Assembly (NCBI RefSeq): GCF_050320075.1
Contig: NZ_CP190018.1
Reading direction: 5' to 3' (one strand)
DNA from: Escherichia coli
Lineage (GTDB): Bacteria > Pseudomonadota > Gammaproteobacteria > Enterobacterales > Enterobacteriaceae
DNA: 64,000 nucleotides
In this document: positions 24,665 through 40,266 of the stretch, in pieces
Numbering within the stretch: position 1 is the stretch's first letter
How the letters are laid out: every line of letters starts with the position of its first letter
Program-made: the position numbers and the translations under genes
The notes under the pieces: generated by a model
Told to the model about the DNA's origin: nothing
Seen by the model: only the letters and a program-made list of their open reading frames with translations
Databases searched by the model: none

Positions 24665-25057
24665 TTATTTCGAACAATCAGCATCCATCTCCAATCGGAG
24701 ATCCAACACCATCAGCATACCCTCCACTACGCCCTCAGCTTTCTGGAGCATCCTGCCAACCCAACAATCAGATCGCCCATGCTTACGTGCAAGCGCCATA
24801 AAAGTCATGCCGCCGACATAATAGTCCACCAATAAATCATGCAAATCGCTGTTGTTCTTTTTCAGACGGGCCATGCACCCGCAAATGATCATCGCGTCAT
24901 CGTCACAACATTGTGGGCGAGATTTTACTTTTGAAGGAATTAATCCCTTAAAACCGGCGGCAATGGACGACCAGGTCACATCTTCATGATTATTAGCCGC
25001 CCACGCTCCCCAACGCTCAAGAACCATCTGAATATCACGCATCAACTTACTCCACAA
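24665..25057 (-). CDS. Late-gene antiterminator Q (phage-82 / DLP12 QuuD type); possible start at the MRDIQM Met
   Basis: ORF (MWSKL)[62 protein letters not shown]... resembles QuuD. Confidence 0.8.
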
Positions 25058-25264
25058 AACTCAGACCAGAACGCCAATTACAAGCAAAAATCAACAAAAC
25101 AGTATTAGTTGATTGTTATCTCTGACTTCATACTCCTGCTCCTGTCAGGGTTTTGGCGTAATTCTTCAGTATTCGGTAATCGGTCAAAACAGAACCAGGG
25201 AAACGATATAAGCGCAGGCGCATCCAGCGGTGGCGAAGAAGTTCTGCCATATAAAACTCAAACA

Positions 25265-25627
25265 TCATTCATCTCCCTGTTCAGTGATGGTCAGTTCCAG
25301 CTTTCCACCTTTGACAACCGGCATCTTCACAACGCGGTAATCAACGACCTGAGCATCATCCAACCAGAAACCTGCTTTGGTGAGTGCGTCAAAAGCGGCC
25401 TTTTGTAGATTATCCAGGTCACGGCGACGGCGATCCGGCATGTGACACTCAATGCGGATTTTCACAGGCATAGCCAGGCCGATATCCAGCATTGCGTTTT
25501 TAATGATTCGGGCGACGTTTTCGCGGTATGCCTGCCCCTCTGCGCTGATGTGCGTGCGCCCGCGATTATGGCGGTAATAGCGATTATTGCTCGGCGGCCA
25601 GGGTAATGTGATATTGTAGGTATTCAC
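25265..25627 (-). CDS. rusA: Holliday-junction resolvase RusA
   Basis: 120-aa [57 protein letters not shown]... matches DLP12 RusA. Confidence 0.92.
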
Positions 25628-25914
25628 GCCTTAATTACCCCCTCTTTCAGCCAGATAACCTGCGTTCTCGCCATACCTTCCAGCGCGCATTCTTTTGCAT
25701 ATCCAGCGTCAACAAAATGCGTGCGACGGTCGATCTCGTCGTGACAGGCAGAACATGCAATGGTGGCAATCAGGTCTGGCGGTTTGATACCGGTACCGCA
25801 CAATCCAGCCAGCCGGATATGTGCCAGTACAGACGTTTCAGGATTGCCATTACATACGCCAGGGATTCTTACCTGGCATTCCCGACCACGCGCTGCTTTT
25901 CTCAAATCAGCCAT
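25624..25914 (-). CDS. YbcO-like prophage protein (Cys/His-rich, putative nuclease)
   Basis: [64 protein letters not shown]... resembles DLP12 YbcO (96 aa). Confidence 0.85.
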
Positions 25915-26077
25915 GATTCCTCCTTGCTGCCAGTCGCAACCATTTTTTATCAACCAGGCTGGCGGTATATCCGAGCAGTGTTGGTATTTCGGATGGTTTC
26001 AGCTCAGGCCTACGCTTACGACGATTTGGTACTTTGTAGATGTGTCCGTTCATGACACGAATAAGCGGTGTAGCCAT
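25907..26077 (-). CDS. NinE-family small protein
   Basis: Hand-translated 56-aa [59 protein letters not shown], overlapping the ybcO-like start (ATGGCTGA); position between ninB and ybcO. Confidence 0.6.
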   Translation of the reverse strand: MATPLIRVMNGHIYKVPNRRKRRPELKPSEIPTLLGYTASLVDKKWLRLAARRNHG

Positions 26078-26532
26078 TACGCCTCCTGCTTATCACGCAG
26101 CAGCTGGAACTCGCAGCTCTGCGGAATAGTCAGGTGGCAGCCAATATTCATCGCCCAGGCTTCAACCTTACACAGGAAGACATACATCTCTCCGGTATCA
26201 AGGTCGGAGGTATGGCGTAACGACTGGATAGTGGTGATATCACCGGTTACGACATCAACCAGGTCTTTGGTTTCATAACCGAGATATGTGTGTTTGAGAG
26301 CATCTTTTACCCAAGCTGGAGTGGCGAACGTTTTACCCCTGCTGATGAGGTATTCACTGATTTCGCTGTACCACATGTGGCTGAGTGCATTCTGGGAAAG
26401 ACTGCGTCTCTCGCGCCACGGTTTAAGCACCATGCGAAAGCATTTGCCGTCCTCCAGATAAGGCTGGATCTGCCGACCGATAGCGGTGAAGTTACCGCGA
26501 TGTAATTTGATGCCATCTTGTGGGAGGTTCAC
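26077..26532 (-). CDS. ninB: Recombination protein NinB
   Basis: 151-aa [61 protein letters not shown]... resembles NinB family proteins. Confidence 0.85.
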
Positions 26533-26726
26533 GCTTCACCTCCGCAGAGGTCAAACGTTGGATGCAAAGAATCGCAGGTGCATTTCTGCATCTGTGAAGA
26601 GAGAAGAGAGTTTAGATTGTATGTGCGCATAAACGTCCCCGTTTAGCGCAGAAGTCACCGGAGTTGTTCAGGCTCCAATGGCATGATTATGGCTGGTTGA
26701 TTATTGGAAATCAAATGTGCTGAAAA

Positions 26727-27236
26727 TTAGTCTGCCAAGTCTTCCTCAGTCGCAACTGGGTAATTCCAAATATCAAAAAAAGCTATAGCCTCCTGCCATT
26801 TGCTCCATAAGTTATCAAGTACTTGTGTAGGTTCCGTACTTTTAAAAACAGAATCAGCCGCATCACCGTTATGAACTTCCTCGTACAGTTCCATTATTAG
26901 CAGATTAACAAAGTACTGTTTCAACATTAATGCCTGATTACCTTCTTTCTGCTGGCTATCCTGCTTGATGATCTCCATCGCCCGTACTAGGCACCTGATG
27001 ATATCCGCTGCATCATTAACGCTCCATTCAGATCCGCGCTTATCTTTAGCTGATGAATTGGCTCTCTCAGCGCAAGCCTTTAAAGACTCATAAAGGTAAA
27101 CTCTATTTTGTAGCTGCAGCGCTTTTTTTGACGTGTACCAACTTGCAAGCGCCGACCCCGCTGCGGCTAATGTGCCAAACGCAGAAATACCTGCTGCTAT
27201 TGCACTTAAGTCGGCACTGTCAAAGTTCCACATCAT
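26727..27236 (-). CDS. Hypothetical protein with one N-terminal transmembrane segment (prophage cargo, unknown function)
   Basis: 169-aa ORF MMWNFDSADLSAIAAGISAFGTLAAAGSALASWYTSKK... then a hydrophilic acidic tail; low GC; no family recognised. Confidence 0.55.
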   Translation of the reverse strand: MMWNFDSADLSAIAAGISAFGTLAAAGSALASWYTSKKALQLQNRVYLYESLKACAERANSSAKDKRGSEWSVNDAADIIRCLVRAMEIIKQDSQQKEGNQALMLKQYFVNLLIMELYEEVHNGDAADSVFKSTEPTQVLDNLWSKWQEAIAFFDIWNYPVATEEDLAD

Positions 27237-27905
27237 CGTTACACCTTATATAAATACCCCTCAGTAATATCCAATAAGGTATGTGCACAATCAATATAAT
27301 TTTATCCGTATCGGCACATAGCGATTTGAAGGCTACTGGTAATAGTATATTTTAGATTATATCGTCCAGTTTACAGCACCCGTATTTTATGAAATGGACT
27401 CGCATATTACCCAAAAAATGCCAGCACTTCCGTCATCGTAGAATGCTGGCAGTATTTCTAACTAGTGACTTTATTGGAACAGATTCTGACGGAAATATGG
27501 TAACACTCGACTCCACTTATCATCCAGCCACGGCTGGAATTTTACATGTGCCGTTTATCTGGCGAGGATTGCTCGCGCTCTGTTGAGTATCTGGGGATAT
27601 TCATGCTCGATAGAAGTAAAGCGGCCGGCTTCGCGGTGCTCCGCAACCTGAAGTAGTGGAGTAACGTTCTGGCAGGCAGTTAACATCACATCACCTGCTC
27701 GCCATAACCAAGCACGTGCACAAAGTTTGTTATCAGTGAATTGTTTTGTGATTGGGTATTGTTGAACTGCTAGAACGAGAACGCCAGCATCCATTGGCAG
27801 TCCCTATAGTAAAACCATAGCTCAGGACGCTTCGTTCAGGATAGATAATTTTATTGTACTTACCTAACTTTCTTACTATAGCACGGTTGAAAAAGTGATT
27901 ATTAC

Positions 27906-29432
27906 TCAAAAATAAACCTCACCATCAACCATATATTTGAGAGTACTTATCGCCTGCTGGGCGGATATTATTTTCATTAAAGGATAGTGTTTAAAAACAA
28001 TGCCATTCATAAAATAGATATCACAGGTTTTATTATCTGTATTGATTATGATTTTTTCGAATGTTTTATAGGCAAGTGTACGACATAGCTCTCGCCCATT
28101 TTTACTGGTTAAGTCAATAGCATGAAAATCACCAAGTGAACTCACCGCTTTACTCTTCAAAGTTTTTAATGATACAGAAGCCCTTCGTAATTCCTTATCT
28201 AATACTCTGATTTTTTCTGCTATAGCGGTAACTTCAGGCGCAACAGATAATGCAGCAATTAAATTATTAATTTTCATCTGGAGCTCAATAATTTTCAACT
28301 CTAAAGTTTCATTAGCATCTTTCTTGTTTTCAACTGGTTGGATTTTACTACAATTAAAAAGCAACTCATTAATGATATTATAATCAACCAAATCTCTCTT
28401 TATTGATGGCCTGTCACATCGATGCAGTCTTCTCATCGGACAAACATAATAGCCATGCAAACTTCCAGATACCGCATGAACAATCATGGTATTACCACAA
28501 GCCTCGCACTTCATAACTGTTCGAAGTAGATTTATCAACATAGGATTTTTGCTACTATTGCTAATACCAAAAGGTGCCAACCGAATTTCCTGCACAGCGT
28601 AAAACAAATCATCTGATATGACTCTGGGATAATAGCCAGCGATTTCACTTATTCCTTTACCTCTTGCACGATATGAAGGTACGCATATACCTATCAGAGC
28701 TTTATTCGCTAATAATTTTTCAATTACAGAAGGTCCCCATGCACTTTCTTTTCCTGAGAAATTCTTTACAGCATGATCATTTAAATACTTGGCTATTGCA
28801 TTCAATGAGCGCCTTTCCATCCTGAGTTTAAAAATTAGCTCAATAGTTTTCACCCTGTCGGGGTCTGGAACAAAAGCCGTTCTTTTGTCATCCAATGAGA
28901 GCCATCTCGGACAAGACGCCGTCATAATCGTGCCTGACTCCAGTGCATCCTGCCGTTTTTTCTTCCATGATAATTTAACCCGACTTGACTTTATCTCGCT
29001 TTCTTCATTTGCCCTTTGTGCTATAAGTATGGCTTTTATTAATGAATATGGCTCATTCAATGAGTCAATATTATAGACTGTATTATCGCAAAGAGTTATA
29101 ACATCAATACCGTGATTCAAAATCAATTTCAGACGCTCAATCGCTTCACCGACTTTTTCTCTTGAAAGTCTGTCCAGACTTTCAACTAACAATGTAGTCC
29201 CTGGCAATATATAACCATGTTCTATAGCATCTAAAAATTCCGAAAAAGCTCCTGATTGTGCATGCTTTCCATTGAATGCGCTTAACCCCAAATCTTCATA
29301 CGTTACGGTATCAAGGTAATAATCACTATTTACCTTTAGCCATTCAGTAATAAGCCTTCTCTGGCGGTTTAATGAATCACCAGACATCTGACCTGGTGAT
29401 GAAAATCGCATATATGCTATGGCTTTTTTCAT
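27906..29432 (-). CDS. Large serine recombinase (resolvase/invertase catalytic domain plus recombinase and Cys-rich zinc-ribbon-like domains), DLP12 YbcK type
   Basis: 508-aa ORF MKKAIAYMRFSSPGQMSGDSLNRQRRLITEWL... (catalytic Ser in RFSSPGQ) with downstream CEACGN...CPMRRLHRCDRP cysteine cluster; low GC. Confidence 0.85.
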   Translation of the reverse strand: MKKAIAYMRFSSPGQMSGDSLNRQRRLITEWLKVNSDYYLDTVTYEDLGLSAFNGKHAQSGAFSEFLDAIEHGYILPGTTLLVESLDRLSREKVGEAIERLKLILNHGIDVITLCDNTVYNIDSLNEPYSLIKAILIAQRANEESEIKSSRVKLSWKKKRQDALESGTIMTASCPRWLSLDDKRTAFVPDPDRVKTIELIFKLRMERRSLNAIAKYLNDHAVKNFSGKESAWGPSVIEKLLANKALIGICVPSYRARGKGISEIAGYYPRVISDDLFYAVQEIRLAPFGISNSSKNPMLINLLRTVMKCEACGNTMIVHAVSGSLHGYYVCPMRRLHRCDRPSIKRDLVDYNIINELLFNCSKIQPVENKKDANETLELKIIELQMKINNLIAALSVAPEVTAIAEKIRVLDKELRRASVSLKTLKSKAVSSLGDFHAIDLTSKNGRELCRTLAYKTFEKIIINTDNKTCDIYFMNGIVFKHYPLMKIISAQQAISTLKYMVDGEVYF

Positions 29433-29687
29433 GGTGACACCTGCTAAAGTATGCTTTTATAAACCTTAGTGGTGAGATATGATTTTTGTTTAATTTTTAT
29501 TTAAAAAGACAATTAAGGTCACATTATCTTGAATATACAACAATAATCGTATTGCAATTTTCTTACACCATAATCTTGAAAGCACAAAAGAATGAATAAA
29601 AACTAAAGACATTAACAAAAAGCATAAAACGAGGCCCATATAAATATACGAACCTCCATATTTTAGTCGTTTAAAAACAAATTATTT

Positions 29688-30020
29688 TTAATGTGGCGTG
29701 CTTCGTGACAATAAATTAATAACCAACACACCGGCACAAATCAACATCATGCCTATAATGGCTGGCAGGTCCAATCGTTGGCCGAAAAATCCCCATGATA
29801 GTAAGCTAATCAGGACAATACCGACTCCTGACCAGATAGCATAAGCAATCCCTGTAGGAATATAAGCCAGCGTCTGAGCTAATAACCAGAATGATGCACA
29901 ATAACAAATAATTGTACCAACAGATGGCCATAACCGTGTAAAACCTTCTGAAAACTTCATTAAGGTTGTACCAATGACCTCTGCAAGTATTGCACCACCA
30001 AGATAAATATAAGGATTCAT
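29688..30020 (-). CDS. emrE: Small multidrug resistance (SMR) efflux protein EmrE
   Basis: MNPYIYLGGAILAEVIGTTLMKFSEGFTRLWPSVGTIICYCASFWLLAQTLAYIPTGIAYAIWSGVGIVLISLLSWGFFGQRLDLPAIIGMMLICAGVL... essentially identical to E. coli EmrE (110 aa). Confidence 0.95.
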   Translation of the reverse strand: MNPYIYLGGAILAEVIGTTLMKFSEGFTRLWPSVGTIICYCASFWLLAQTLAYIPTGIAYAIWSGVGIVLISLLSWGFFGQRLDLPAIIGMMLICAGVLVINLLSRSTPH

Positions 30021-30087
30021 AGCATATTCTTTCCTGTTCAAACTGGAGAGAATTGTACTACAGTTTGAACTCAACTCACCTGTTTCA

Positions 30088-30390
30088 TCATTGTGTACCC
30101 ATTGATGTTCTTTTATATACCCTCAATACCCGTTTCATCGCGGCACTCTGGCGACACTCCTTAAAAATCAAATTCGTGCTCACCTTTCCTTCCCATTCTT
30201 CTCTGGTAGCGAACCGATAATACACCGTTCGCCAGACCTTACCATCAACGACCAGGATTCCTGCCCGCGCCATTTTAGCCGCAGCCTGATTTATGCTGGT
30301 TACCGTTGCGCCTGTTACCGCGGCAACGTCCTGCGCACAGAATTTCTTATGAGTCCCCAGGTAATGAATAATTGCCTCTTTGCCCGTCAT
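30088..30390 (-). CDS. ren: Ren protein
   Basis: 100-aa ORF MTGKEAIIHYLGTHKKFCAQDVAAVTGATVTSINQAAAKMARAGILVVDGKVWRTVYYRFATREE... matches lambda Ren. Confidence 0.9.
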   Translation of the reverse strand: MTGKEAIIHYLGTHKKFCAQDVAAVTGATVTSINQAAAKMARAGILVVDGKVWRTVYYRFATREEWEGKVSTNLIFKECRQSAAMKRVLRVYKRTSMGTQ

Positions 30391-31088
30391 ACCCTTGCTC
30401 CTTTCAGCCCAAACTTAGCTTTGATTTCTGCGATCTTCGCCAGAGCCTGAGCACGATTTAGAGGTCTACCGCCCATGACAGGAAGTTGTTTTACTGGTTC
30501 AGGTATAGCCTCACCACGGTTAATTCGTGCGGTCATACAGGACAGTTCATCGGCAGCCTTGCGCCGTAATTCCGCGTCAGTCAACGCATTGGCCCGCATG
30601 TTCTGATACAGGTTGGTAACCAGCCAGTAGTGCGCGTTTGATTTCCACGGATAAGACTCTGCATCCGGATACAGCCCGCGCTTCCGGCAATACTCGTAAA
30701 CCATATCAACCAGCTCGCTGGCGTTTGGCAGCCCAGCGGTAACGGATGCTTCTTCCCGGCACCAGGCGACAAACTGCCCGGGTGATGGCAGGAATGGTCG
30801 ATTCTGCCGACGGGCTACGCGCATTCCAGCGTTAACCTGTTCCATTGTGGTGATCCCGTTTTCCCGAAAAGCCAGCACCCACTGGCGGCGGATTTCGTTC
30901 AGTTCATTCTGGTCACGGTTAGCCAGGCTCGCCGGGAAAGTTGCCAGTAACTGGCTGAACACACCGTTGATGATCTGCGCTACCTGCTGTACCTGTGGCT
31001 TTTCGTCGTACTGTTCCGGCATGTTGTTGGCGATCCGACGCATCTGCTCACGGTCAAAGTTAACCATCTGTGCGGCGATGTTTTTCAT
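30387..31088 (-). CDS. P: Replication protein P (DnaB helicase loader)
   Basis: 233-aa ORF MKNIAAQMVNFDREQMRRIANNMPEQYDEKPQVQQVAQIINGVFSQLLATFPASLANRDQNE... matches lambda P. Confidence 0.95.
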   Translation of the reverse strand: MKNIAAQMVNFDREQMRRIANNMPEQYDEKPQVQQVAQIINGVFSQLLATFPASLANRDQNELNEIRRQWVLAFRENGITTMEQVNAGMRVARRQNRPFLPSPGQFVAWCREEASVTAGLPNASELVDMVYEYCRKRGLYPDAESYPWKSNAHYWLVTNLYQNMRANALTDAELRRKAADELSCMTARINRGEAIPEPVKQLPVMGGRPLNRAQALAKIAEIKAKFGLKGARV

Positions 31089-32104
31089 AGATCCACCCCG
31101 TAAATCCAGTCAGTGTTTGTCAGGTCGAGTTTTGGTTTGCCGACTGTCACGCCAGCCTGTTGCTTGTTCCGGTTGATTTCGAGCTGGGTCCACTTGTCGC
31201 GGAGTTTGGCCGGACTCAGCACGTTACCGGACCAGAAGTTGTCCTGGCAGGCCCAGCGGAACAGTACACACATGTCGCGGTGGTTACGTCCATCACGTTC
31301 ACGCATCAGACGGATATCGTTAGCCCACCCTGCAAAATTCGGTTTTCTGGCTGATGGCGCGATGGTCTTCACCATGTCAAACATCCACTCTGCGGCGGTC
31401 AGGTCTTCTGCTGTCCCCCACTTGCTGCCGCTCTGAATTGCAGCATCCGGTTTCACCACAGGAAGATCGTTTTCTGGTTGGTCAGAGGATTCGCCAGAAT
31501 TCTCGGACGAAAAAGGTTTTATATTGTCTTTTGTTAGTTTGTCTTTTGTGTTTACCTGATTCGGGTAAACGCCTTTACCTGATTTGGGTAAACTTTTTTT
31601 ACCTGATTCAGGTAAATTTACCTCTTTCAGGTAAACTTTATTTTTCTTACCTGATTCGGGTAATGTTGACCATTCACTGACCACATTATTAATGCCGGTA
31701 TTCCGCCCGCTCTGAATAAAAATCCCACGCTTTACCAGAACACTTTTTGCAGCAGAACACTTGTGCGGCAATATCCCGGTTAATTCGGAAAGTTGCTCGT
31801 TGCTAACCCAATCCAGTTTTTTATTAAAGCCATATGTTTTGCGCATGACAGCCAGAAAGACCAGAAGCTGGTGCTGTGTTAATCCGGCCAGCATCACAGC
31901 TTCCAGCAACTCATTTGCAATGCGCGTATAACCATCATCGAGATCTGCCACGCGCGGCTCCTTTTGTGCCTCATCCGGCACTGGAAAATTGAATATCTCA
32001 GCAGTGTTTGCCATAATTCCTTCCGCAATGAGTGCGTTACGATTTGCACCTGAAAGTCGGCTCTGTTCCCGCAGACCGGCTTTCGCCATTTCTGAACCTG
32101 TCAT
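31085..32104 (-). CDS. O: Replication initiator O (non-lambda N-terminal iteron-binding domain, lambda-like C-terminal P-interaction domain); alternative start at 32014
   Basis: 339-aa ORF whose C-terminal ~100 aa match lambda O; start overlaps the upstream ydaT-like stop in ATGA; ori iterons inside the gene. Confidence 0.88.
   Translation of the reverse strand: MTGSEMAKAGLREQSRLSGANRNALIAEGIMANTAEIFNFPVPDEAQKEPRVADLDDGYTRIANELLEAVMLAGLTQHQLLVFLAVMRKTYGFNKKLDWVSNEQLSELTGILPHKCSAAKSVLVKRGIFIQSGRNTGINNVVSEWSTLPESGKKNKVYLKEVNLPESGKKSLPKSGKGVYPNQVNTKDKLTKDNIKPFSSENSGESSDQPENDLPVVKPDAAIQSGSKWGTAEDLTAAEWMFDMVKTIAPSARKPNFAGWANDIRLMRERDGRNHRDMCVLFRWACQDNFWSGNVLSPAKLRDKWTQLEINRNKQQAGVTVGKPKLDLTNTDWIYGVDL
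31545..31660. repeat. Replication origin iterons inside O: about five ~18-bp palindromic repeats (TTACCTGATTCGGGTAAA-like) plus AT-rich tract
   Basis: Direct repeats seen in sequence: TACCTGATTCGGGTAAAC, TACCTGATTTGGGTAAAC, TACCTGATTCAGGTAAAT, ACCTCTTTCAGGTAAAC, TACCTGATTCGGGTAATG; position equivalent to lambda ori within O. Confidence 0.8.
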
Positions 32105-32646
32105 ATTGCCCCCAGCATGGTGGTAACCATCGCCATTAATGGACCAGCCAGATCCGGGTCCACACGAAACATCGACACAATACCTTCACTCATTTCCTTC
32201 AGTTTCTGGTGGCGTGGTGCGTTGAGAATGACCGCCTGCTTTGCCTCACAGAGTTCCTTTTCCATTTCAGCCAGCCGAGCCATGAAGCTATCCTGCTCAA
32301 CCAGGTGGCCGCGATATTCCAGCGGTAGTACCGCCAGAATTGCCGGGGTCAGTTCACGCACGTTATTTCGGTATTTTTCAGAATCGAATTTGTTATCGAG
32401 GAAGCGGAACAGCTTCTGGCGTGCACGGCTGACATCATCAGGGAAATCGATGGTGCCGCCGCCCTGCTCCCGATACTCATTCACAATGAGTGCGGCAACA
32501 ACATCCTGATTATCTGCAGCCGACCACGCGCGAACGGCATCACGGATTTTTTCGTGGCCTGGCACCTGTTTTATTTGAGAACGATTTATCACCGCAGTCG
32601 GGCTAAATCCGCTAGTCTGTTGGTATGTAAGTGGTTGCATAGTCAT
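32101..32646 (-). CDS. YdaT-like protein (Rac-prophage ydaT family) in the cII position
   Basis: 181-aa ORF containing ...ELTPAILAVLPLEYRGHLVEQDSFMARLA..., resembling Rac YdaT as I recall it. Confidence 0.6.
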   Translation of the reverse strand: MTMQPLTYQQTSGFSPTAVINRSQIKQVPGHEKIRDAVRAWSAADNQDVVAALIVNEYREQGGGTIDFPDDVSRARQKLFRFLDNKFDSEKYRNNVRELTPAILAVLPLEYRGHLVEQDSFMARLAEMEKELCEAKQAVILNAPRHQKLKEMSEGIVSMFRVDPDLAGPLMAMVTTMLGAI

Positions 32647-32670
32647 TGCCTTATCAGTTAACGCCGCAGT

Positions 32671-32904
32671 TTAGGCGGCAGAATTACTCGCGTTAAACAA
32701 TGGTGCAAGGTCGGGACGAATATCTGCTGGTTTAATCTTTCCACCAGTGGCTGAGACAATTTTCATTACATAGCGGGCATCAATTCCGCCACCGTGTAGC
32801 CAACGCCAAACAGTGGGCTGGGCTACACCGCATAGATCTGCCAGTCGTTTTTGACTACCTGTAATACTGATTGCGAGTTGAATGGTTTGATTTGTCATTA
32901 TCAA
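32671..32904 (-). CDS. Cro/YdaS-like HTH DNA-binding protein (lytic-side regulator)
   Basis: 77-aa ORF ...QKRLADLCGVAQPTVWRWLHGGGIDARYVMKIVSATGG... (helix-turn-helix), divergent from the repressor gene. Confidence 0.75.
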   Translation of the reverse strand: MIMTNQTIQLAISITGSQKRLADLCGVAQPTVWRWLHGGGIDARYVMKIVSATGGKIKPADIRPDLAPLFNASNSAA

Positions 32905-33008
32905 TTCCTATTGGTATTACAATGAATGGATAATAGCAATGCGTATTAATCCAATCAATAGCAAAACGTGTTTTGACCATCAATACGCAAGCGTATAAAT
33001 TAAAACTT
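32905..33008. promoter_or_regulatory. Immunity-region divergent promoter/operator region (OR equivalent) with ATACGC/GCGTAT half-sites including the palindrome ATACGCAAGCGTAT (32983..32996)
   Basis: AT-rich 104-bp spacer between divergent cro-like and cI-like genes; repeated half-sites seen in sequence; operator assignment is inferred. Confidence 0.5.
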
Positions 33009-33701
33009 ATGAAAAAAGAAACTCTTGCTGATCGCTTAAACCTAGCGATGGAACAATCTGGAATGTCTCAAGGCGCTCTTGCAAAGGCGTCTGGCGTAGC
33101 TCAACCCACAATCTGGAGACTGACAAGCGGCAACGCACGCGGCTCAACAAAAATTGTTGAAATAGCTAATGCATTGGGTGTTCGAACAGAGTGGCTCTCA
33201 TCAGGCATAGGCCCGATGAGAAATGACGGTCAACAATCAGGGAAGCCTGCTGTCAACCATTCCAAATACTTCAAAATTGACGTTCTTGATATAGAAGTCA
33301 GTGCTGGGCCGGGTGTCATCAACCGTGAGTTTGTAGAAGTCCTACGCTCGGTTGAGTACTCGTTTGACGATGCTCGTCACATGTTCGATGGCAGGAAGGC
33401 AGAAAATATCCGCATCATTAACGTACGCGGTGACAGCATGTCAGGAACGATCGAACCAGGTGATCTTCTGTTCGTTGATATCACTGTTAAATCTTTCGAC
33501 GGTGATGGTATCTATGCGTTTCTGTACGACGACACAGCCCATGTAAAGCGCCTGCAAATGATGAAGGATAAGCTGCTGGTTATCTCTGATAACAAGAGCT
33601 ACTCACCGTGGGACCCGATCGAAAAAGACGAAATGAATCGGGTATTTATATTTGGGAAAGTTATTGGGAGTATGCCACAGACATATAGAAAACATGGGTA
33701 G
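33009..33701 (+). CDS. CI-type prophage repressor (N-terminal HTH, C-terminal S24 LexA-like autopeptidase domain)
   Basis: MKKETLADRLNLAMEQSGMSQGALAKASGVAQPTIWRLTSGN... plus C-terminal RGDSMSGTIEPGDLLFV...VKRL motifs and a candidate Ala-Gly cleavage site (VSAGPG); not lambda cI. Confidence 0.88.
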   Translation: MKKETLADRLNLAMEQSGMSQGALAKASGVAQPTIWRLTSGNARGSTKIVEIANALGVRTEWLSSGIGPMRNDGQQSGKPAVNHSKYFKIDVLDIEVSAGPGVINREFVEVLRSVEYSFDDARHMFDGRKAENIRIINVRGDSMSGTIEPGDLLFVDITVKSFDGDGIYAFLYDDTAHVKRLQMMKDKLLVISDNKSYSPWDPIEKDEMNRVFIFGKVIGSMPQTYRKHG

Positions 33702-33807
33702 ATTATTAATGACAGATTTCATCAAGATAACCAGATGATGTTTTGGTGAGACATGCTGACATCCTCATAATTTATAGAATGGATGTTTCAAGCAGAGCTT
33801 AAGGTAT

Positions 33808-35415
33808 ATGGATATGTCAAAAAAAATTTTTGAATTCAAAAATTACCCAATAGTCTTTATTGGCTCAGGCATTTCAAAAAGATATTTAGAGAACTACCCA
33901 ACGTGGGAAGAGCTATTAAACGAGTATTGGAAAATAACAAATCCCACAAATGATTTCTATAGTTATCTTTTAACAATAAAAGAATCACATAAAAATAACA
34001 GTGATAATGATATCGATCATAAGATTTATACAGAGGCAGCAAGTAAAATTGAAAATGATTACAATCTATTGTTTAGGACTGGCAAATTAAAATTAAATGG
34101 ACTAGATGCCAAGAGGGTTTTTAGTGAAGATATTTCACCATTTAAATACGCCATATGCCAAAGATTTTCTAATAACACAATCAGAAAGGATGTAAATCTT
34201 GATGAATTAGCATCATTTAAAACATTAATAAAAAAGGCCAAGATAATCATCACTACAAATTATGATGCTTTCATAGAAAATTTACTTCAAGAGCAAAATG
34301 TAACTCCAAAACTCTATATTGGAAATAATGGTTTTTTCGAAGATACTATTGGCTGGAGTGAGTTATACAAAATACATGGTGATATAAAGGATCCACACTC
34401 AATAATCATAAATAAAGATGATTACGAAAAATATGACAACAAATCTATACTCATTAGTGCCAAGATACTATCTAACATGATTAAAAATCCAATAGTTTTT
34501 CTTGGATATTCTTTAACTGACAGGAATGTAAAGAAACTTCTTTCTGATTTTTCCTCACAACTACCTAGAGAAGATGGTCGAAAATCAGCTGAAAGAATAA
34601 TTTTGATTGAATATAAAGAGAATGAACAGGAAGTAGTACCAAAACAGATTACCGATCAACAGCTACAAATTACATATACATCTGTTAAAACAGATAACTA
34701 TAAACAGATCTATGATGAGATCAGTGCTGTTGATGAAGGGCTCTCACCTTATGATGTTTTAAGGTATCAAAGAGCCATTAAAACACTTATCATTAATGAG
34801 GGTGAAAAAGGGCACTTAGATACTCTATTGGTTTCACCTTCTGACTTAGACAGACTTGAAGAAAGTGTTAAACAAGGAAAAAATTTAGTTGTTGCTCTAG
34901 GCGATAAAAAGTATGTATTCACACAAGTTAAAGAAATAAATTATCTTGAAGACTACTTATTTAATAAAAATGAAATATCTAATAAATTAGCTATAGATTT
35001 CATATTAGGTTCAGTAAACTCATTACAACTTCCATTTTCAAAAACTATAACCTCATGTAATTTGAAAGAGTTAAGTTTGCCAGCTAAATATGTGTTAAAA
35101 CTAAATCAACGCATTGAACGCCACGGAAAACTAGACGACTTGCTCAATAAAATCACCTTAGATAAAATCAATGCAAATAAAATTTACACCAACATCAAAG
35201 ATATAAAGGATGCAAAGTTCAAAAAGTACAAAGAATTGTCTATAGTCATTAAGAACATAAAAAATATCCCCAAAGAGGAGATTGAAGATTATGTTAAAAA
35301 AGAAGCGTTTGTTCAATTCAAGGCATGCGACGTTGACAATTTAAAAACCCAGTATAGGAAACTATTTCTTGCCTACGACTTGTTGATTCATGGAAATGTT
35401 GAAAAGATAAATTAA
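33808..35415 (+). CDS. SIR2-like (sirtuin-family, SIR2_2-type) domain protein with uncharacterised C-terminal half; candidate single-gene anti-phage defence protein in the rexAB-equivalent position
   Basis: 535-aa ORF, about 28-30% GC; motifs FIGSGISK (res 17-24), IIITTNYD (N151), YKIHGD (H190), IVFLGYSLTD (229-238) with Asn-His spacing of 39 as in defence-associated SIR2 domains; directly downstream and co-oriented with the repressor. Confidence 0.7.
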   Translation: MDMSKKIFEFKNYPIVFIGSGISKRYLENYPTWEELLNEYWKITNPTNDFYSYLLTIKESHKNNSDNDIDHKIYTEAASKIENDYNLLFRTGKLKLNGLDAKRVFSEDISPFKYAICQRFSNNTIRKDVNLDELASFKTLIKKAKIIITTNYDAFIENLLQEQNVTPKLYIGNNGFFEDTIGWSELYKIHGDIKDPHSIIINKDDYEKYDNKSILISAKILSNMIKNPIVFLGYSLTDRNVKKLLSDFSSQLPREDGRKSAERIILIEYKENEQEVVPKQITDQQLQITYTSVKTDNYKQIYDEISAVDEGLSPYDVLRYQRAIKTLIINEGEKGHLDTLLVSPSDLDRLEESVKQGKNLVVALGDKKYVFTQVKEINYLEDYLFNKNEISNKLAIDFILGSVNSLQLPFSKTITSCNLKELSLPAKYVLKLNQRIERHGKLDDLLNKITLDKINANKIYTNIKDIKDAKFKKYKELSIVIKNIKNIPKEEIEDYVKKEAFVQFKACDVDNLKTQYRKLFLAYDLLIHGNVEKIN

Positions 35416-35919
35416 ATAAACGCCCCGTACAAAGCGATGGCGGGGCTAATAAGTCATTTATGTATCATTTAGCAACTGACTAAAAAAATACACATAAGAA
35501 CTCAGACTACCAATATTCGATTAAATTTGCTGCCAACCTACCGAGCTCACCACAACCCGATGCCCCTCTGTCACGAGGCACATTAAAGCTGTACAAATTT
35601 CAGCCACACCAATAAGTCTTCATACTCTTTTTTATAAAAATTCATTTAATTATCAATCAGAACAAGTATATCAAACATTATCAATACTAATTGCTATTGA
35701 CTACACCAATAGCTATTGCTATTGTCATGCTATTGCATCGATGTTGGTATCACAAAATTTATAACTTCACCGTTGCGATGACCGCTTAGATCCGCAGCTT
35801 GAATTTCAGCAGGCTCCGGGGAGTGCGAGGGGTGAAGCGGACGCGTGAACGTCGGTGTGACCAGCTGAAATCAACTCAACACTTCATACCTCAGTCGCTT
35901 CAACGAGGCGACTTAGTTA

Positions 35920-36209
35920 TGACAACCGGCGGCCATCCACCGCCTGAATACGCGCAGAAGTCTCTATATGTTCAGCAGCCCAGCTTACGGGCAGGAGTTT
36001 TTATGGTTCATCAACATTACGGAACGCAGACCGTTAATCGAGGTGCGGTCATGCCAGGAATGCTGGTCAAACACAAAGATGGTACCTGGACTGCATCAGC
36101 TAATTTACGCGGACGGCTATATCTGCATCGCGGCATCGAGCGCACTTATACCCGTGATTTGCTCGTGGAAGTTTTTCTCGACGGACGCGGTAACGGCCTG
36201 AATCACTAA
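35920..36209 (+). CDS. Hypothetical protein (96 aa from ATG; a TTG-initiated 136-aa version starts at 35799)
   Basis: [38 protein letters not shown]... with upstream GAGG; sits where lambda has N-ral-cIII-kil but resembles none of them. Confidence 0.35.
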
Positions 36210-36284
36210 TCCCCTTTCCTGTTTTCCTAATCAGCCTGGCATTTCGCGGGCGATATTTTCACAGCCATTTTCAGGAGTTCAGCC

Positions 36285-36581
36285 ATGAACGCTTATTACA
36301 TTCAGGATCGTCTTGAGGCTCAGAGCTGGGCGCGTCACTACCAGCAGATCGCCCGTGAAGAGAAAGAGGCAGAACTGGCAGACGACATGGAAAAAGGTCT
36401 GCCCCAGCACCTGTTTGAATCACTCTGCATCGATCATTTGCAACGTCACGGGGCCAGCAAAAAAGCCATTACCCGTGCGTTTGATGACGATGTTGAGTTT
36501 CAGGAGCGCATGGCAGAACACATCCGGTACATGGTTGAAACCATTGCTCACCACCAGGTTGATATTGATTCAGAGGTATAA
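36285..36581 (+). CDS. gam: Gam (RecBCD inhibitor; 98-aa short form)
   Basis: [60 protein letters not shown]... matches lambda Gam. Confidence 0.93.
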
Positions 36582-36586
36582 AACGG

Positions 36587-37372
36587 ATGAGTACAGCACT
36601 CGCAACGCTGGCTGGGAAGCTGGCTGAACGAGTCGGCATGGATTCTGTCGACCCACAGGAACTGATCACCACTCTTCGCCAGACGGCATTTAAAGGTGAT
36701 GCCAGCGATGCGCAGTTCATCGCATTGCTGATCGTCGCCAACCAGTACGGTCTTAATCCGTGGACGAAAGAAATTTACGCCTTCCCTGATAAGCAGAACG
36801 GCATCGTTCCGGTGGTGGGCGTTGATGGCTGGTCCCGCATCATCAACGAAAACCAGCAGTTTGACGGCATGGACTTTGAACAGGACAACGAATCCTGCAC
36901 ATGCCGGATTTACCGCAAAGACCGCAATCATCCGATCTGCGTTACCGAGTGGATGGATGAATGCCGCCGCGAACCATTCAAAACCCGCGAAGGCAGAGAA
37001 ATCACCGGACCGTGGCAGTCGCATCCCAAACGGATGTTACGGCATAAAGCCATGATTCAGTGTGCCCGTCTGGCCTTCGGATTTGCTGGTATCTATGACA
37101 AGGATGAAGCCGAGCGCATTGTCGAAAATACTGCATACACTGCAGAACGTCAGCCGGAACGCGACATCACTCCGGTTAACGATGAAACCATGCAGGAGAT
37201 TAACACTCTGCTGATCGCCTTGGATAAAACATGGGATGACGACTTATTGCCGCTCTGTTCCCAGATATTTCGCCGCGACATTCGCGCATCGTCAGAACTG
37301 ACACAGGCCGAAGCAGTGAAAGCTCTTGGATTCCTGAAACAGAAAGCCACTGAGCAGAAGGTGGCAGCATGA
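36587..37372 (+). CDS. bet: Bet (Red-beta single-strand annealing protein)
   Basis: 261-aa [69 protein letters not shown]... matches lambda Beta. Confidence 0.95.
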
Positions 37373-38049
37373 CACCGGACATTATCCTGCAGCGTACCGG
37401 GATCGACGTGAGAGCTGTCGAACAGGGGGATGATGCATGGCACAAATTACGGCTCGGCGTCATCACCGCTTCAGAAGTTCACAACGTGATAGCAAAGCCC
37501 CGATCAGGAAAGAAGTGGCCTGACATGAAAATGTCCTACTTCCACACCCTGCTAGCTGAGGTTTGCACCGGTGTGGCTCCGGAAGTTAACGCTAAAGCGC
37601 TGGCCTGGGGAAAACAGTACGAGAACGACGCCAGAACCCTGTTTGAGTTCACTTCCGGCGTAAATGTTATTGAATCCCCGATCATCTATCGCGACGAAAG
37701 TATGCGCACCGCCTGCTCTCCCGATGGTTTATGCAGTGACGGCAATGGCCTTGAGCTGAAATGCCCGTTTACCTCCCGGGATTTCATGAAATTCCGGCTC
37801 GGTGGTTTCGAGGCCATAAAGTCGGCTTACATGGCCCAGGTGCAGTACAGCATGTGGGTGACGCGAAAAGATGCCTGGTACTTTGCCAACTATGACCCGC
37901 GTATGAAGCGTGAAGGCCTGCATTATGTCGTGATTGAGCGGAATGAAAAGTATATAGCGAGTTTTGACGAGATGGTGCCGGAGTTCATCGAAAAAATGGA
38001 CGAGGCACTGGCTGAAATTGGTTTTGTATTTGGGGAGCAATGGCGATGA
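37369..38049 (+). CDS. exo: Exo (lambda exonuclease, Red-alpha)
   Basis: 226-aa [68 protein letters not shown]... matches lambda Exo. Confidence 0.95.
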
Positions 38050-38228
38050 AACATCCTCACGATAATATCCGCGTAGGCACGATCACTTTCGTCTACTCCG
38101 TTACGAAGCGAGGCTGGGTATTTCCCGGCCTTTCTGTTATCCGAAATCCCCTGAAAGCACAGCGGCTGGCTGAGGAGATAAATAATAAACGGGGAGCTGT
38201 ATGCACAAAGCATCTCCCGTTGAGTTAA
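38040..38228 (+). CDS. Lambda orf60a-like small protein
   Basis: 62-aa [65 protein letters not shown] in the position of the small lambda ORF following exo. Confidence 0.7.
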
Positions 38229-38392
38229 GAACGAGTATCGAGATGGCACATAGCCTCGCTCAAATTGGAGTCAGGTTTGTGCCAATACCAGTAGAAACAG
38301 ACGAAGAATTTCATACGTTAGCCGCATCCCTTTCACAAAAGCTGGAAATGATGGTGGCGAAAGCAGAAGCAGATGAGAGAGACCAGGTATGA
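38201..38392 (+). CDS. Lambda orf63-like small protein
   Basis: 63-aa [66 protein letters not shown]. Confidence 0.65.
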   Translation: MHKASPVELRTSIEMAHSLAQIGVRFVPIPVETDEEFHTLAASLSQKLEMMVAKAEADERDQV

Positions 38393-38468
38393 CAACCACG
38401 GAATGCATTTTTCTGGCAGCGGGCTTCATATTCTGTGTGCTTATGCTTGCCGACATGGGACTTGTTCA

Positions 38469-38684
38469 ATGACACCTCAGCAGGAAAACGCCCTTCGCAG
38501 CATTGCCCGTCAGGCTAATTCTGAAATCAAAAAAGCCAGACAGCAGTTTCCGGATAAAAACGTCGATGACATTTGCCGTAGCGTACTGAAGAAGCACCGC
38601 GAAACGGTAACGCTGATGGGATTCACACCGACTCATTTAAGCCTGGCAATCGGCATGTTAAACGGCGTCTTTAAGGAACGATGA
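38469..38684 (+). CDS. Lambda orf61-like small protein
   Basis: ORF MTPQQENALRSIARQANSEIKKARQQFPDKNVDDICRSVLKKHRETVTLMGFTPTHLSLAIGMLNGVFKER from internal ATG. Confidence 0.6.
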   Translation: MTPQQENALRSIARQANSEIKKARQQFPDKNVDDICRSVLKKHRETVTLMGFTPTHLSLAIGMLNGVFKER

Positions 38685-38782
38685 ACATGAAAAGCAAAAT
38701 CATCAGGGAGCTACAGGCTCCTTTTTTATTATTCGCATTCACCCTCAAGCGTATTAACCAACAATTCAGGGATTAATGGAAG

Positions 38783-39004
38783 ATGGCAGACATCATTGAT
38801 TCAGCATCAGAAATTGAAGAATTACAGCGCAACACAGCAATAAAAATGCGCCGCCTGAACCACCAGGCTATATCTGCCACTCATTGTTGTGAGTGTGGCG
38901 ATCCGATAGATGAACGAAGACGCCTGGTCGTTCAGGGTTGTCGGACTTGTGCAAGTTGCCAGGAGGATCTGGAGCTTATCAGTAAACAGAGAGGTTCGAA
39001 GTGA
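38783..39004 (+). CDS. TraR/DksA-family C4 zinc-finger protein (lambda orf73-like, probable RNA-polymerase-binding factor)
   Basis: 73-aa ORF with CCECGDPIDERRR...CRTCASCQ four-cysteine motif. Confidence 0.75.
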   Translation: MADIIDSASEIEELQRNTAIKMRRLNHQAISATHCCECGDPIDERRRLVVQGCRTCASCQEDLELISKQRGSK

Positions 39005-39214: not shown

Positions 39215-39817
39215 TCATTCAGTATCATCACGCGCGGTCTGTGCATATGTCACTACCGCACCTAATATATTAATTTTCTTTTCAACATAGATAATATTAT
39301 CGTACTCATAATTGCCATACGGATAGCAAATGCGAATATTCTCATGTAGATCGGGGTCATCCACCTCAGCTCCAGAACAACTTTTTGAACTACCGGAAGT
39401 ATACCGATACGGTGCAACATAAGACGATGTCTCTCCAGGCAAAAAATAAGTTAGTGTCGTAAGGGGTATAATCAGAAAAAATCCAGCAAATATGCACATC
39501 CCTGCATAAACCTTAAGGTATGCTGACAGACTCTTCCAGCCTCTTTGTTTTACTATCCCCTTCTTAACCCAAAACAGAGATAACAGAAAAGCTATTCCCA
39601 TGCTAAACAGAATGTAATAGTGGGATATACTCTGATTAAGAAACGTGACCCTGTAGATATCTGCCCGCCACCAGAAGAAAAGGAAAATAAAGATCAGCCC
39701 TGAAACTGTCATGCAAATCAAATAAGGATACGAATCTTTTTTCATGTTTAGCGCCCATAAAATTTTTCCTGACCCGGACAAATTTACCATCCATTTTTTG
39801 CGCAGAAAATAGCTCAT
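39215..39817 (-). CDS. Hypothetical polytopic membrane protein (prophage cargo; likely start at the MKKDSY Met, 39745)
   Basis: 200-aa ORF with at least three hydrophobic helices (LICMTVSGLIFIFLFFWW; YYILFSMGIAFLLSLFWV; VYAGMCIFAGFFLIIPLTTLTYFL) and a hydrophilic C-terminal domain; low GC; opposite strand to surrounding early-left genes. Confidence 0.55.
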   Translation of the reverse strand: MSYFLRKKWMVNLSGSGKILWALNMKKDSYPYLICMTVSGLIFIFLFFWWRADIYRVTFLNQSISHYYILFSMGIAFLLSLFWVKKGIVKQRGWKSLSAYLKVYAGMCIFAGFFLIIPLTTLTYFLPGETSSYVAPYRYTSGSSKSCSGAEVDDPDLHENIRICYPYGNYEYDNIIYVEKKINILGAVVTYAQTARDDTE

Positions 39818-40266
39818 TACTTACTGCACAATAATACACAAAATTGCGTAAATTTTTTGCATGGATTTTAGCTCTTTCAGCCGACATTTAAGGGGTAAAT
39901 AGCATTTCCTAAAAGCAACTGCACCAACCCAACAGAATGGGCTACCGCTTACGTTGAGAGCAAAAAAGTGTATAGCAGCAATGAACAGCATCCTCGCACT
40001 GACGAGGATTTCTTTTATCTGAACTCGCTACGGCGGGTTTTGTTTTATGGCGATGATAAATGCACTTCCGAGTCACAGGAGAATGGAATGGAGAGCCATT
40101 CAACAGAGTTATCGAAGCGGAGAACATCAACGACTGCTACGACCACTGGATGATATGGGCGCAGATAGCACATGCAGACATAACCAATATTCGAATTGAA
40201 GAACTGAAAGAACACCAAGCCGCCTGATGGCGGTTTTTTCTTGCGTGTAATTGCGGAGACTTTGCG

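Follow-up and report, generated by a model that had tools for sequence, protein, structure and literature searches.

What occupies the short stretch between a SIR2-like gene and gam in an Escherichia coli prophage, and is it the remains of an N-type antitermination region? We addressed this question in a 64,000-nt stretch of contig NZ_CP190018.1 (the window, from whose first letter positions are counted). From the end of the SIR2-like ORF (35415) to the start of gam (36285) there is a gap of 869 bp, which bears out the short distance (870 bp) given in a preliminary description of this DNA. The rexB-gam distance in lambda, with which that description compared it, is about 2.6 kb (rexB start 35825, long-form gam end 33232) rather than about 1.7 kb. 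We conclude, with a probability of roughly 0.88, that an N-less lambdoid prophage of the DLP12/Bievrevirus type has here the control region of its early-left operon together with that operon's first gene, and not a degenerate or cryptic N region. The interval and its neighbours contain the following genes and elements.

32973-33701, with the early-left operon on the + strand: cI (S24 peptidase and HTH)
33808-35415, + strand: SIR2_2-domain gene, 535 aa
35419-35450, + strand: hairpin GCCCCG...CGGGGC directly 3' of the SIR2-like stop codon (RNAfold, -14.3 kcal/mol)
35993-35997, + strand: Shine-Dalgarno sequence AGGAG, read from the sequence, 5 nt before the kil ATG at 36003
36003-36209, + strand: kil, 68 aa, KilR/phi80-Kil family (PHROG 294, NCBIfam, phi80 Kil, RefSeq)
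36210-36284, + strand: kil-gam spacer, lambda-like and common to about 180 phage records
36285-36581, + strand: gam, short form, 98 aa (Pfam PF06064, E 3e-65, match 1-98 of 98)

Beyond gam, which begins 75 nt after the kil stop codon, the order is bet, exo, small lambda-like ORFs, xis and int, and the opposite strand carries a YdaS-like cro and a YdaT-like 181-aa 'cII'. The gam frame is closed by a TAA at 36228, 57 nt upstream of the gam ATG (about 54 nt in the earlier account), and only the short Gam is encoded, as had been proposed. The hairpin behind the SIR2-like gene is possibly the terminator of the cI-SIR2 transcript; its U-tract is weak, and a terminator scan called the same hairpin on the minus strand only.

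The only sizeable ORF in the interval runs from 35799 to 36209. Its TTG start and its length of 136 aa are as first described, but its internal ATG lies at 35919, not 35920. We found that residues 69-136 match PHROG 294, 'Kil protein for bacterial septation inhibition', with E values of 1e-38 to 1.3e-37, and that this match is full-length, placing Kil residues 1-68 on profile positions 13-80 of 83. NCBIfam NF008465 (PRK11354, the Rac KilR 'FtsZ inhibitor protein') also matches, at E 1.8e-17 over model positions 1-70 of 73. The score of 63.1 bits does not reach the curated cutoff of 92 bits, and this Kil is therefore a homolog outside the narrow Rac KilR subfamily. phi80 Kil is 40% identical to it (E 7e-12), RefSeq has a CDS at the same coordinates (WP_000233576.1, 'phage encoded cell division inhibitor protein'), and tblastn found a Kil match in 146 phage records, 144 of which span at least 80% of the query. 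Pfam returned no family for the 136-aa ORF, and the identification comes from PHROGs and NCBIfam. No similarity to lambda Kil (47 aa) was found, its best tblastn match (E 0.97) lying on the opposite strand within gam. The product also fits the Kil family in being a small protein with its own start, encoded early-left and upstream of recombination genes, and Kil occupies the equivalent position in 4A7, SEN34, Mulock, phiES15 and phi80.

The preliminary description had listed kil as missing and the ORF as resembling no lambda product. The last 68 codons of this ORF are Kil by comparison with PHROG 294, NF008465 and phi80 Kil alike, and the ORF does resemble a known early-left product, the Kil of the KilR/phi80 family. 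When compared with both N and Kil profiles, as had been suggested, it matched Kil but showed no N similarity in Pfam or PHROG. Rac KilR is an inhibitor of FtsZ and of cell elongation (PMC12482147, PMC5793797). By homology, the Kil described here would inhibit FtsZ-dependent division, an activity known for Rac KilR alone. There is nothing unusual in the flagged ORF, a phage cell-division inhibitor already annotated as such, and the feature is already known. Beyond correct annotation its importance is slight, since RefSeq already names the ORF and N-less lambdoid phages are a recognised group.

Where would transcription of kil begin? Three features upstream of the gene bear on this question.

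35682-35735, strand not assigned: operator-like repeats (oL), two 18-bp near-palindromes, CAATACTAATTGCTATTG and CAATAGCTATTGCTATTG, 25 bp apart
35697-35725, + strand: likely pL, TTGACT-17 nt-TATTGT with TG before the -10, and a transcript start probably near 35732
35732-36002, + strand: leader of the predicted pL transcript, about 270 nt, likely untranslated, from alignment with relatives

The half-site GCTATTG/CAATAGC is present in five copies within 43 bp, at 35693-35735. Across the window GCTATTG has 14 matches, with these five clustered here and one in the cI-cro intergenic region at 32956-32962. The motif scan for pL that had been called for returned TTGACT-17-TATTGT as the sole promoter-like site within 35300-36400, and six relatives among the phages, all of other sequence types, have TTGAC/TTGAT and TATTAT/TAAATA aligned with its -35 and -10 hexamers. 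Because the clustered half-sites overlap the only promoter-like site, and this site is aligned in relatives, we read 35682-35735 as the likely oL/pL region on the basis of its sequence. The predicted location, downstream of cI-linked cargo genes, is like that of pL in lambda, phi80 and HK639.

From 35766 on, the leader and what follows have 95-100% identity with about 16 sequenced phages (4A7, Perceval, the PhiR series, Turner and others) and with 80 IMG/VR loci. Taken whole, the leader folds much as its shuffles do (z = -0.96), and Rfam searched over 32000-37000 at E values up to 10 gave only noise matches, to eukaryotic snoRNA and miRNA families inside the SIR2 gene. A sharp mosaic junction lies inside the leader at 35766, about +34 of the transcript. 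Upstream of this junction ATCGCAACAACACAACGATACGGCAAC...CCTGA is common to all 16 related phages but not to the window, whose version recurs in a few IMG/VR loci (L073, L083 and L090).

Two structures within the leader call for separate treatment.

35803-35871, + strand: imperfect inverted repeat of the preliminary description, arms 35803-35813 and 35861-35871, 11 nt, 91% complementary
35883-35946, + strand: strongly folding two-hairpin block, 64 nt (MFE -25.8 kcal/mol, z = -5.55)

The inverted repeat reported to span the start of the ORF does exist, but at the level of chance: when the region is shuffled with its dinucleotides preserved, 71% of the shuffles contain a perfect 8-bp inverted repeat within 120 nt, and the segment that holds the reported repeat folds no better than shuffles (z = -0.03). 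A long 5' hairpin at 35766-35836 likewise folds no better than shuffles (z = -0.87) and is not claimed. This hairpin and the inverted-repeat helix both tolerate common variants.

The 64-nt block folds far more stably than its shuffles, which average -11.4 kcal/mol and none of which (0 of 200) folds as well. It has an extended hairpin of 16 bp (35884-35922) whose GC-rich core is GUCGCUUC-AAC-GAGGCGAC, which buries GAGG and the AUG at 35919, and which is followed by UUAGUUAU; a second hairpin of 5 bp, GGCGG-CCAUCCA-CCGCC, lies at 35928-35944. In HK225 a 95% identical block follows an intrinsic terminator and precedes Kil, and its flanks there are unrelated. Among 37 distinct relatives, most variants of the block preserve its pairing by G-U changes, and one breaks a pair.

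What might such a block do? It is possible, although we hold the view only tentatively, that it is a leaky intrinsic terminator or attenuator, or else an RNase III or stability element, which would limit toxic Kil and the genes behind it. The exceptional fold is consistent with either role. The GC-rich core of 8-9 bp followed by UUAGUUAU resembles an attenuator, but the U-tract is poor and a simple terminator scan did not call the hairpin. The stretch ahead of the stable hairpin, AAUCAACUCAACACUUCAUACCUCA at 35870-35893, is C-rich and contains no G, which would also suit an attenuator. Canonical terminators are found at the equivalent place in phiES15, just before Kil, and directly upstream of the shared block in HK225 (CCCGCCACGGCGGGTTTTTT; locus L005, 2440-2640). 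NusG-dependent termination silences Rac kilR (PMC5793797), a further point in favour of attenuation. Termination of this kind is Rho-dependent. Against these stand the absence of the block upstream of Kil in mEp237, SEN34, Mulock, phi80 and HK639, and the prospect that its 95% identity in HK225 reflects recent mosaic exchange and nothing else. Compensatory covariation was not seen, no pair being changed on both sides among 37 distinct leaders that are too similar to one another; together with the absence from five other phages, this means that the conservation of the block may come from such an exchange. On balance, the exceptional fold, the phiES15 terminator and the silencing of Rac kilR lead us to favour a possible role of the block as a leaky attenuator or in RNA processing or stability. 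Three loci (L018, L049 and L066) carry a 5-nt insertion (TCAAC/CAACC) in the G-free stretch.

Which start codon does Kil use? The frame remains open upstream of the annotated ATG, and this part of it was the source of the suggested Arg-rich N-terminus.

35799-36002, + strand: upstream extension of the Kil frame (TTG 35799, ATG 35919), including the Arg-rich stretch, judged non-coding

We place the start at 36003 on the evidence of the Shine-Dalgarno sequence, the RefSeq call, the homologs of 68-73 aa in seven other phages (HK225, mEp237, SEN34, Mulock and phiES15, all with 68 aa, as well as phi80 and HK639) and a codon bias found only downstream of this position. In a seven-phage alignment, third codon positions account for 10 of the 12 variable sites within 36003-36209, and the variable sites upstream of 36003 are spread evenly over codon positions, with no bias. 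Of 86 related loci, 39 do not keep the frame from the TTG intact: 33 have TAG (from CAG) at 35892, three a 5-nt insertion, two a 37-nt duplication and one, phage Turner, a 1-nt deletion at 35993 that nevertheless keeps GGAG. The duplication (two loci, L012 type) spans the Kil Shine-Dalgarno sequence and start. The Arg codons themselves (CGG ACG CGT GAA CGT CGG) form a CG-rich near-palindrome, which accounts for the Arg-rich composition without a protein. Judged from these alignments, the 'N-like' Arg-rich stretch is not part of a conserved coding sequence, and its likeness to an N-type motif, raised in the preliminary description, does not extend to a conserved protein.

Production of Kil as a 96-aa N-extended protein from the ATG at 35919 is unlikely. 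Although 83 of 86 relatives keep this frame open and in phase, it is shifted in Turner and in the loci with the 37-nt duplication, and its equivalent in HK225 ends after 21 codons. Some gene callers took this or longer starts (96 aa in IdasGreatGrand, 139 aa in Perceval), but the RefSeq call is the 68-aa form. The PHROG profile alignment extends 9 residues upstream of Met69, whereas every diverged homolog is 68-73 aa long. Moreover, the AUG at 35919 and the GAGG 10 nt upstream of it are paired inside a hairpin predicted at -16 kcal/mol. In HK225 the AUG of the block opens the 21-codon ORF (MTIGGHPPP...), which ends before Kil; the conserved N-terminal MT(T/I)GGHPPP of that ORF includes a polyproline run.

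Has antitermination been lost here, or replaced? N, ral and cIII are absent, as the preliminary description held. No credible match came from tblastn searches of the 64-kb window with lambda N, cIII, ral, ea10, sieB and Kil, with phi80 N and with HK022 Nun, and the best match to an N or Nun query (lambda N, phi80 N or HK022 Nun) had an E value of 0.007 and fell inside bet. An N homolog elsewhere in the prophage, which the description had named as the finding that would overturn it, was likewise not found within the window. Just downstream of pL there is no N-homologous protein, as Pfam gave nothing and PHROG just Kil on the ORF, and 35416-36003 has no room for another ORF of at least 30 aa. 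Perceval, a hand-annotated relative, lists Q but no N, and N thus appears to be absent from the whole lineage. SEN34, Mulock and phiES15 have the compact repressor-(cargo)-Kil-Gam order as well, likewise with no N annotated.

RNA elements of known type were not found either. Related nut sites (boxA with a boxB hairpin) in the pL and pR transcripts were not seen, degenerate boxA/boxB motifs being judged by eye only. When 35726-36002 was compared with the window by low-stringency blastn, no leader segment turned up a second time (best E 1.2), and there is consequently no nutR- or putR-like partner; the cro-like/cII-like intergenic gap is only 24 nt. For put, we located the known elements, two in HK022 (putL, putR) and the annotated putL of HK639. 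A degenerate pattern then retrieved 63 distinct put sequences from IMG/VR, and 16 of these went into a calibrated covariance model, R1. Positive controls scored 95.8, 87 and 77 bits. The early region of the window scored at most 5.5 bits with filters off, a search with default filters was negative as well, and the model had no match in 4A7 or Perceval. Paired put elements downstream of both pL and pR were absent, and the leader is not repeated on the pR side. The divergent N-like system that had been envisaged thus found no counterpart, in that tblastn, the covariance model, Rfam and the repeat search detected no N-, nut- or put-like element.

Could the leader (35766-35946) instead be a cis-acting RNA that makes RNA polymerase termination-resistant, a put analog of another sequence family that replaces N? 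N-less lambdoid phages are already recognised, and put-like mechanisms have been guessed for them (PMC12315714). The lineage has no N, the leader is placed like putL, just downstream of pL, and terminator-like hairpins lie downstream in the operon. However, the put covariance model has no match, and no related copy exists in the pR operon. The leader does keep 95-100% identity behind several operator/promoter sequence types, but it is no more conserved than the flanking coding and intergenic DNA, shows no compensatory covariation and has no diverged homologs among 50,697 phage records; nor does its 5' part surpass shuffles in folding (z = -0.87 and +0.28). We consider such an analog very improbable. 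Slimmer still is the chance that the pL leader, especially its 64-nt block, belongs to a new class of cis-acting RNA that replaces N/nut in N-less DLP12/Bievrevirus-type phages, through termination resistance or through read-through gating into kil-gam-bet-exo-xis-int.

The weakest proposal, that the TTG-extended 136-aa ORF is a divergent N-like antiterminator whose Arg-rich N-terminus binds a boxB-like hairpin in its own leader, is already largely refuted and has hardly any chance of being right: RGVKRTRERR is superficially like the lambda N motif TRRRERR, and a small hairpin, GACG-CGUGAA-CGUC at 35840-35853, recalls the short ACG...CGU hairpin in the annotated phi80 nutL core, but the frame is broken in many relatives, no Shine-Dalgarno sequence precedes the TTG, neither profiles nor tblastn show similarity to any N or Nun, the window has no second copy of a leader element and so no nutR, a complete Kil domain with a Shine-Dalgarno sequence of its own makes up the C-terminal half, and the Arg codons coincide with the CG-rich palindrome.

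If the interval is indeed the control region and first gene of an N-less early-left operon, it may work as follows. The hairpin after the SIR2-like gene would end the cI-SIR2 (moron) transcript. CI operators would overlap pL, with the leader of about 270 nt next, then kil from the ATG at 36003 and gam-bet-exo directly after it. Once the S24-type CI repressor was inactivated, pL would presumably fire; Kil would be translated from its own AGGAG and block FtsZ-dependent division, as experiments have shown for Rac KilR, and Gam, Bet and Exo would be made from the same transcript. The stable block 80-120 nt before kil would most likely adjust how strongly toxic Kil and the genes behind it are expressed, whether through partial termination, through RNA processing or through stabilisation. 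In this reading the lineage has neither an N protein nor nut sites nor put RNA, and the Arg-rich peptide is a by-product of the CG-rich leader sequence.

How does this arrangement compare with known systems? The closest are the Bievrevirus-type phages 4A7, Perceval and the PhiR series, which have the same order of pL, leader, Kil, Gam, Bet and Exo and a 68-aa Kil 100% identical to that of the window. They differ from it in the cI-pL cargo (here the SIR2-like PDC-S25 gene), in the first 33 or so nucleotides of the transcript and in the operator sequences. Rac KilR is homologous over its full length (1-70 of 73) and also small, although the window Kil scores 63 bits against a cutoff of 92. In phi80, Kil likewise lies upstream of gam/rec/exo genes, but phi80 has an annotated N, nutL (boxA and core) and tL1 terminators between pL and Kil, none of which is present in the window. 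With lambda, the window shares a common plan of cI-linked cargo, oL/pL, a division inhibitor and gam-bet-exo, and its kil-gam junction and gam, bet and exo are lambda-like. However, N, nutL, ral, sieB, ea10 and cIII of lambda are absent, the Kil has no detectable similarity to lambda Kil, and pL and gam are about 0.55 kb apart in the window and about 2.4 kb apart in lambda. HK022 and HK639 resemble the window in being lambdoid and without N, and in having a conserved element that is transcribed immediately after pL. HK639 also has a Kil of the KilR type, and its 'cII' has 181 aa, as does the YdaT-like protein of the window. Unlike the put RNAs of these two phages, the leader in the window matches the put model in neither sequence nor structure and has no second copy in the right operon.

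Prophages of this lineage are very common in E. coli. Among complete E. coli genomes, part of the query was matched in 3178 of 5426, and the full SIR2-pL-Kil arrangement is present in 165. The early-region content of the window maps entirely onto genes of Perceval, to which it is 97% identical over ybcK-emrE-renD-P-O-cII-cro-cI (27688-33701) and from Kil to dksA (35766-38967). The right arm (24683-33701, compared with Perceval) is DLP12-like, with renD, emrE, the ybcK serine recombinase, ninB/E, ybcO, rusA and a lambda/quuD-type Q, and 26716-27687 is not common to Perceval. On the minus strand, the cro and 'cII' genes (32101-32904) resemble YdaS (Pfam E 1e-14) and YdaT (Pfam E 3e-29), as do those of the Rac prophage. 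In HK639 (locus L092), a user of put RNA, cro and the 181-aa cII match those of the window in size and are followed by an annotated 'M3-like RNA'; the cII-like gene of the window overlaps the O gene, which leaves no room for an element of that type.

The SIR2-like gene (33808-35415) matches the PADLOC candidate defence family PDC-S25 nearly end to end (E 6e-236), with weaker matches to SIR2 proteins of the ThsA type. It sits in the slot equivalent to that of rexAB, between cI and pL. Relatives carry other cargo there: a hypothetical protein and an ASCH-domain protein in 4A7, a hypothetical protein and a transmembrane protein in Perceval, and a lipoprotein in PhiR26_1. The cI-pL slot looks like a hotspot for morons and defence genes.

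Further along the pL operon, between the exo-side genes and xis, terminator-like hairpins lie at 38705-38723, 39990-40040 and 40217-40236 on the + strand. Given those at 38705-38723 and 40217-40236, either read-through of some form or separate promoters for xis and int must exist, and the route by which pL transcription would pass such hairpins to reach xis and int is what leaves a small chance of a new kind of antitermination role for the leader. The hairpins flank a reverse-oriented ORF for a 200-aa membrane protein (39215-39817, - strand), which looks like inserted cargo.
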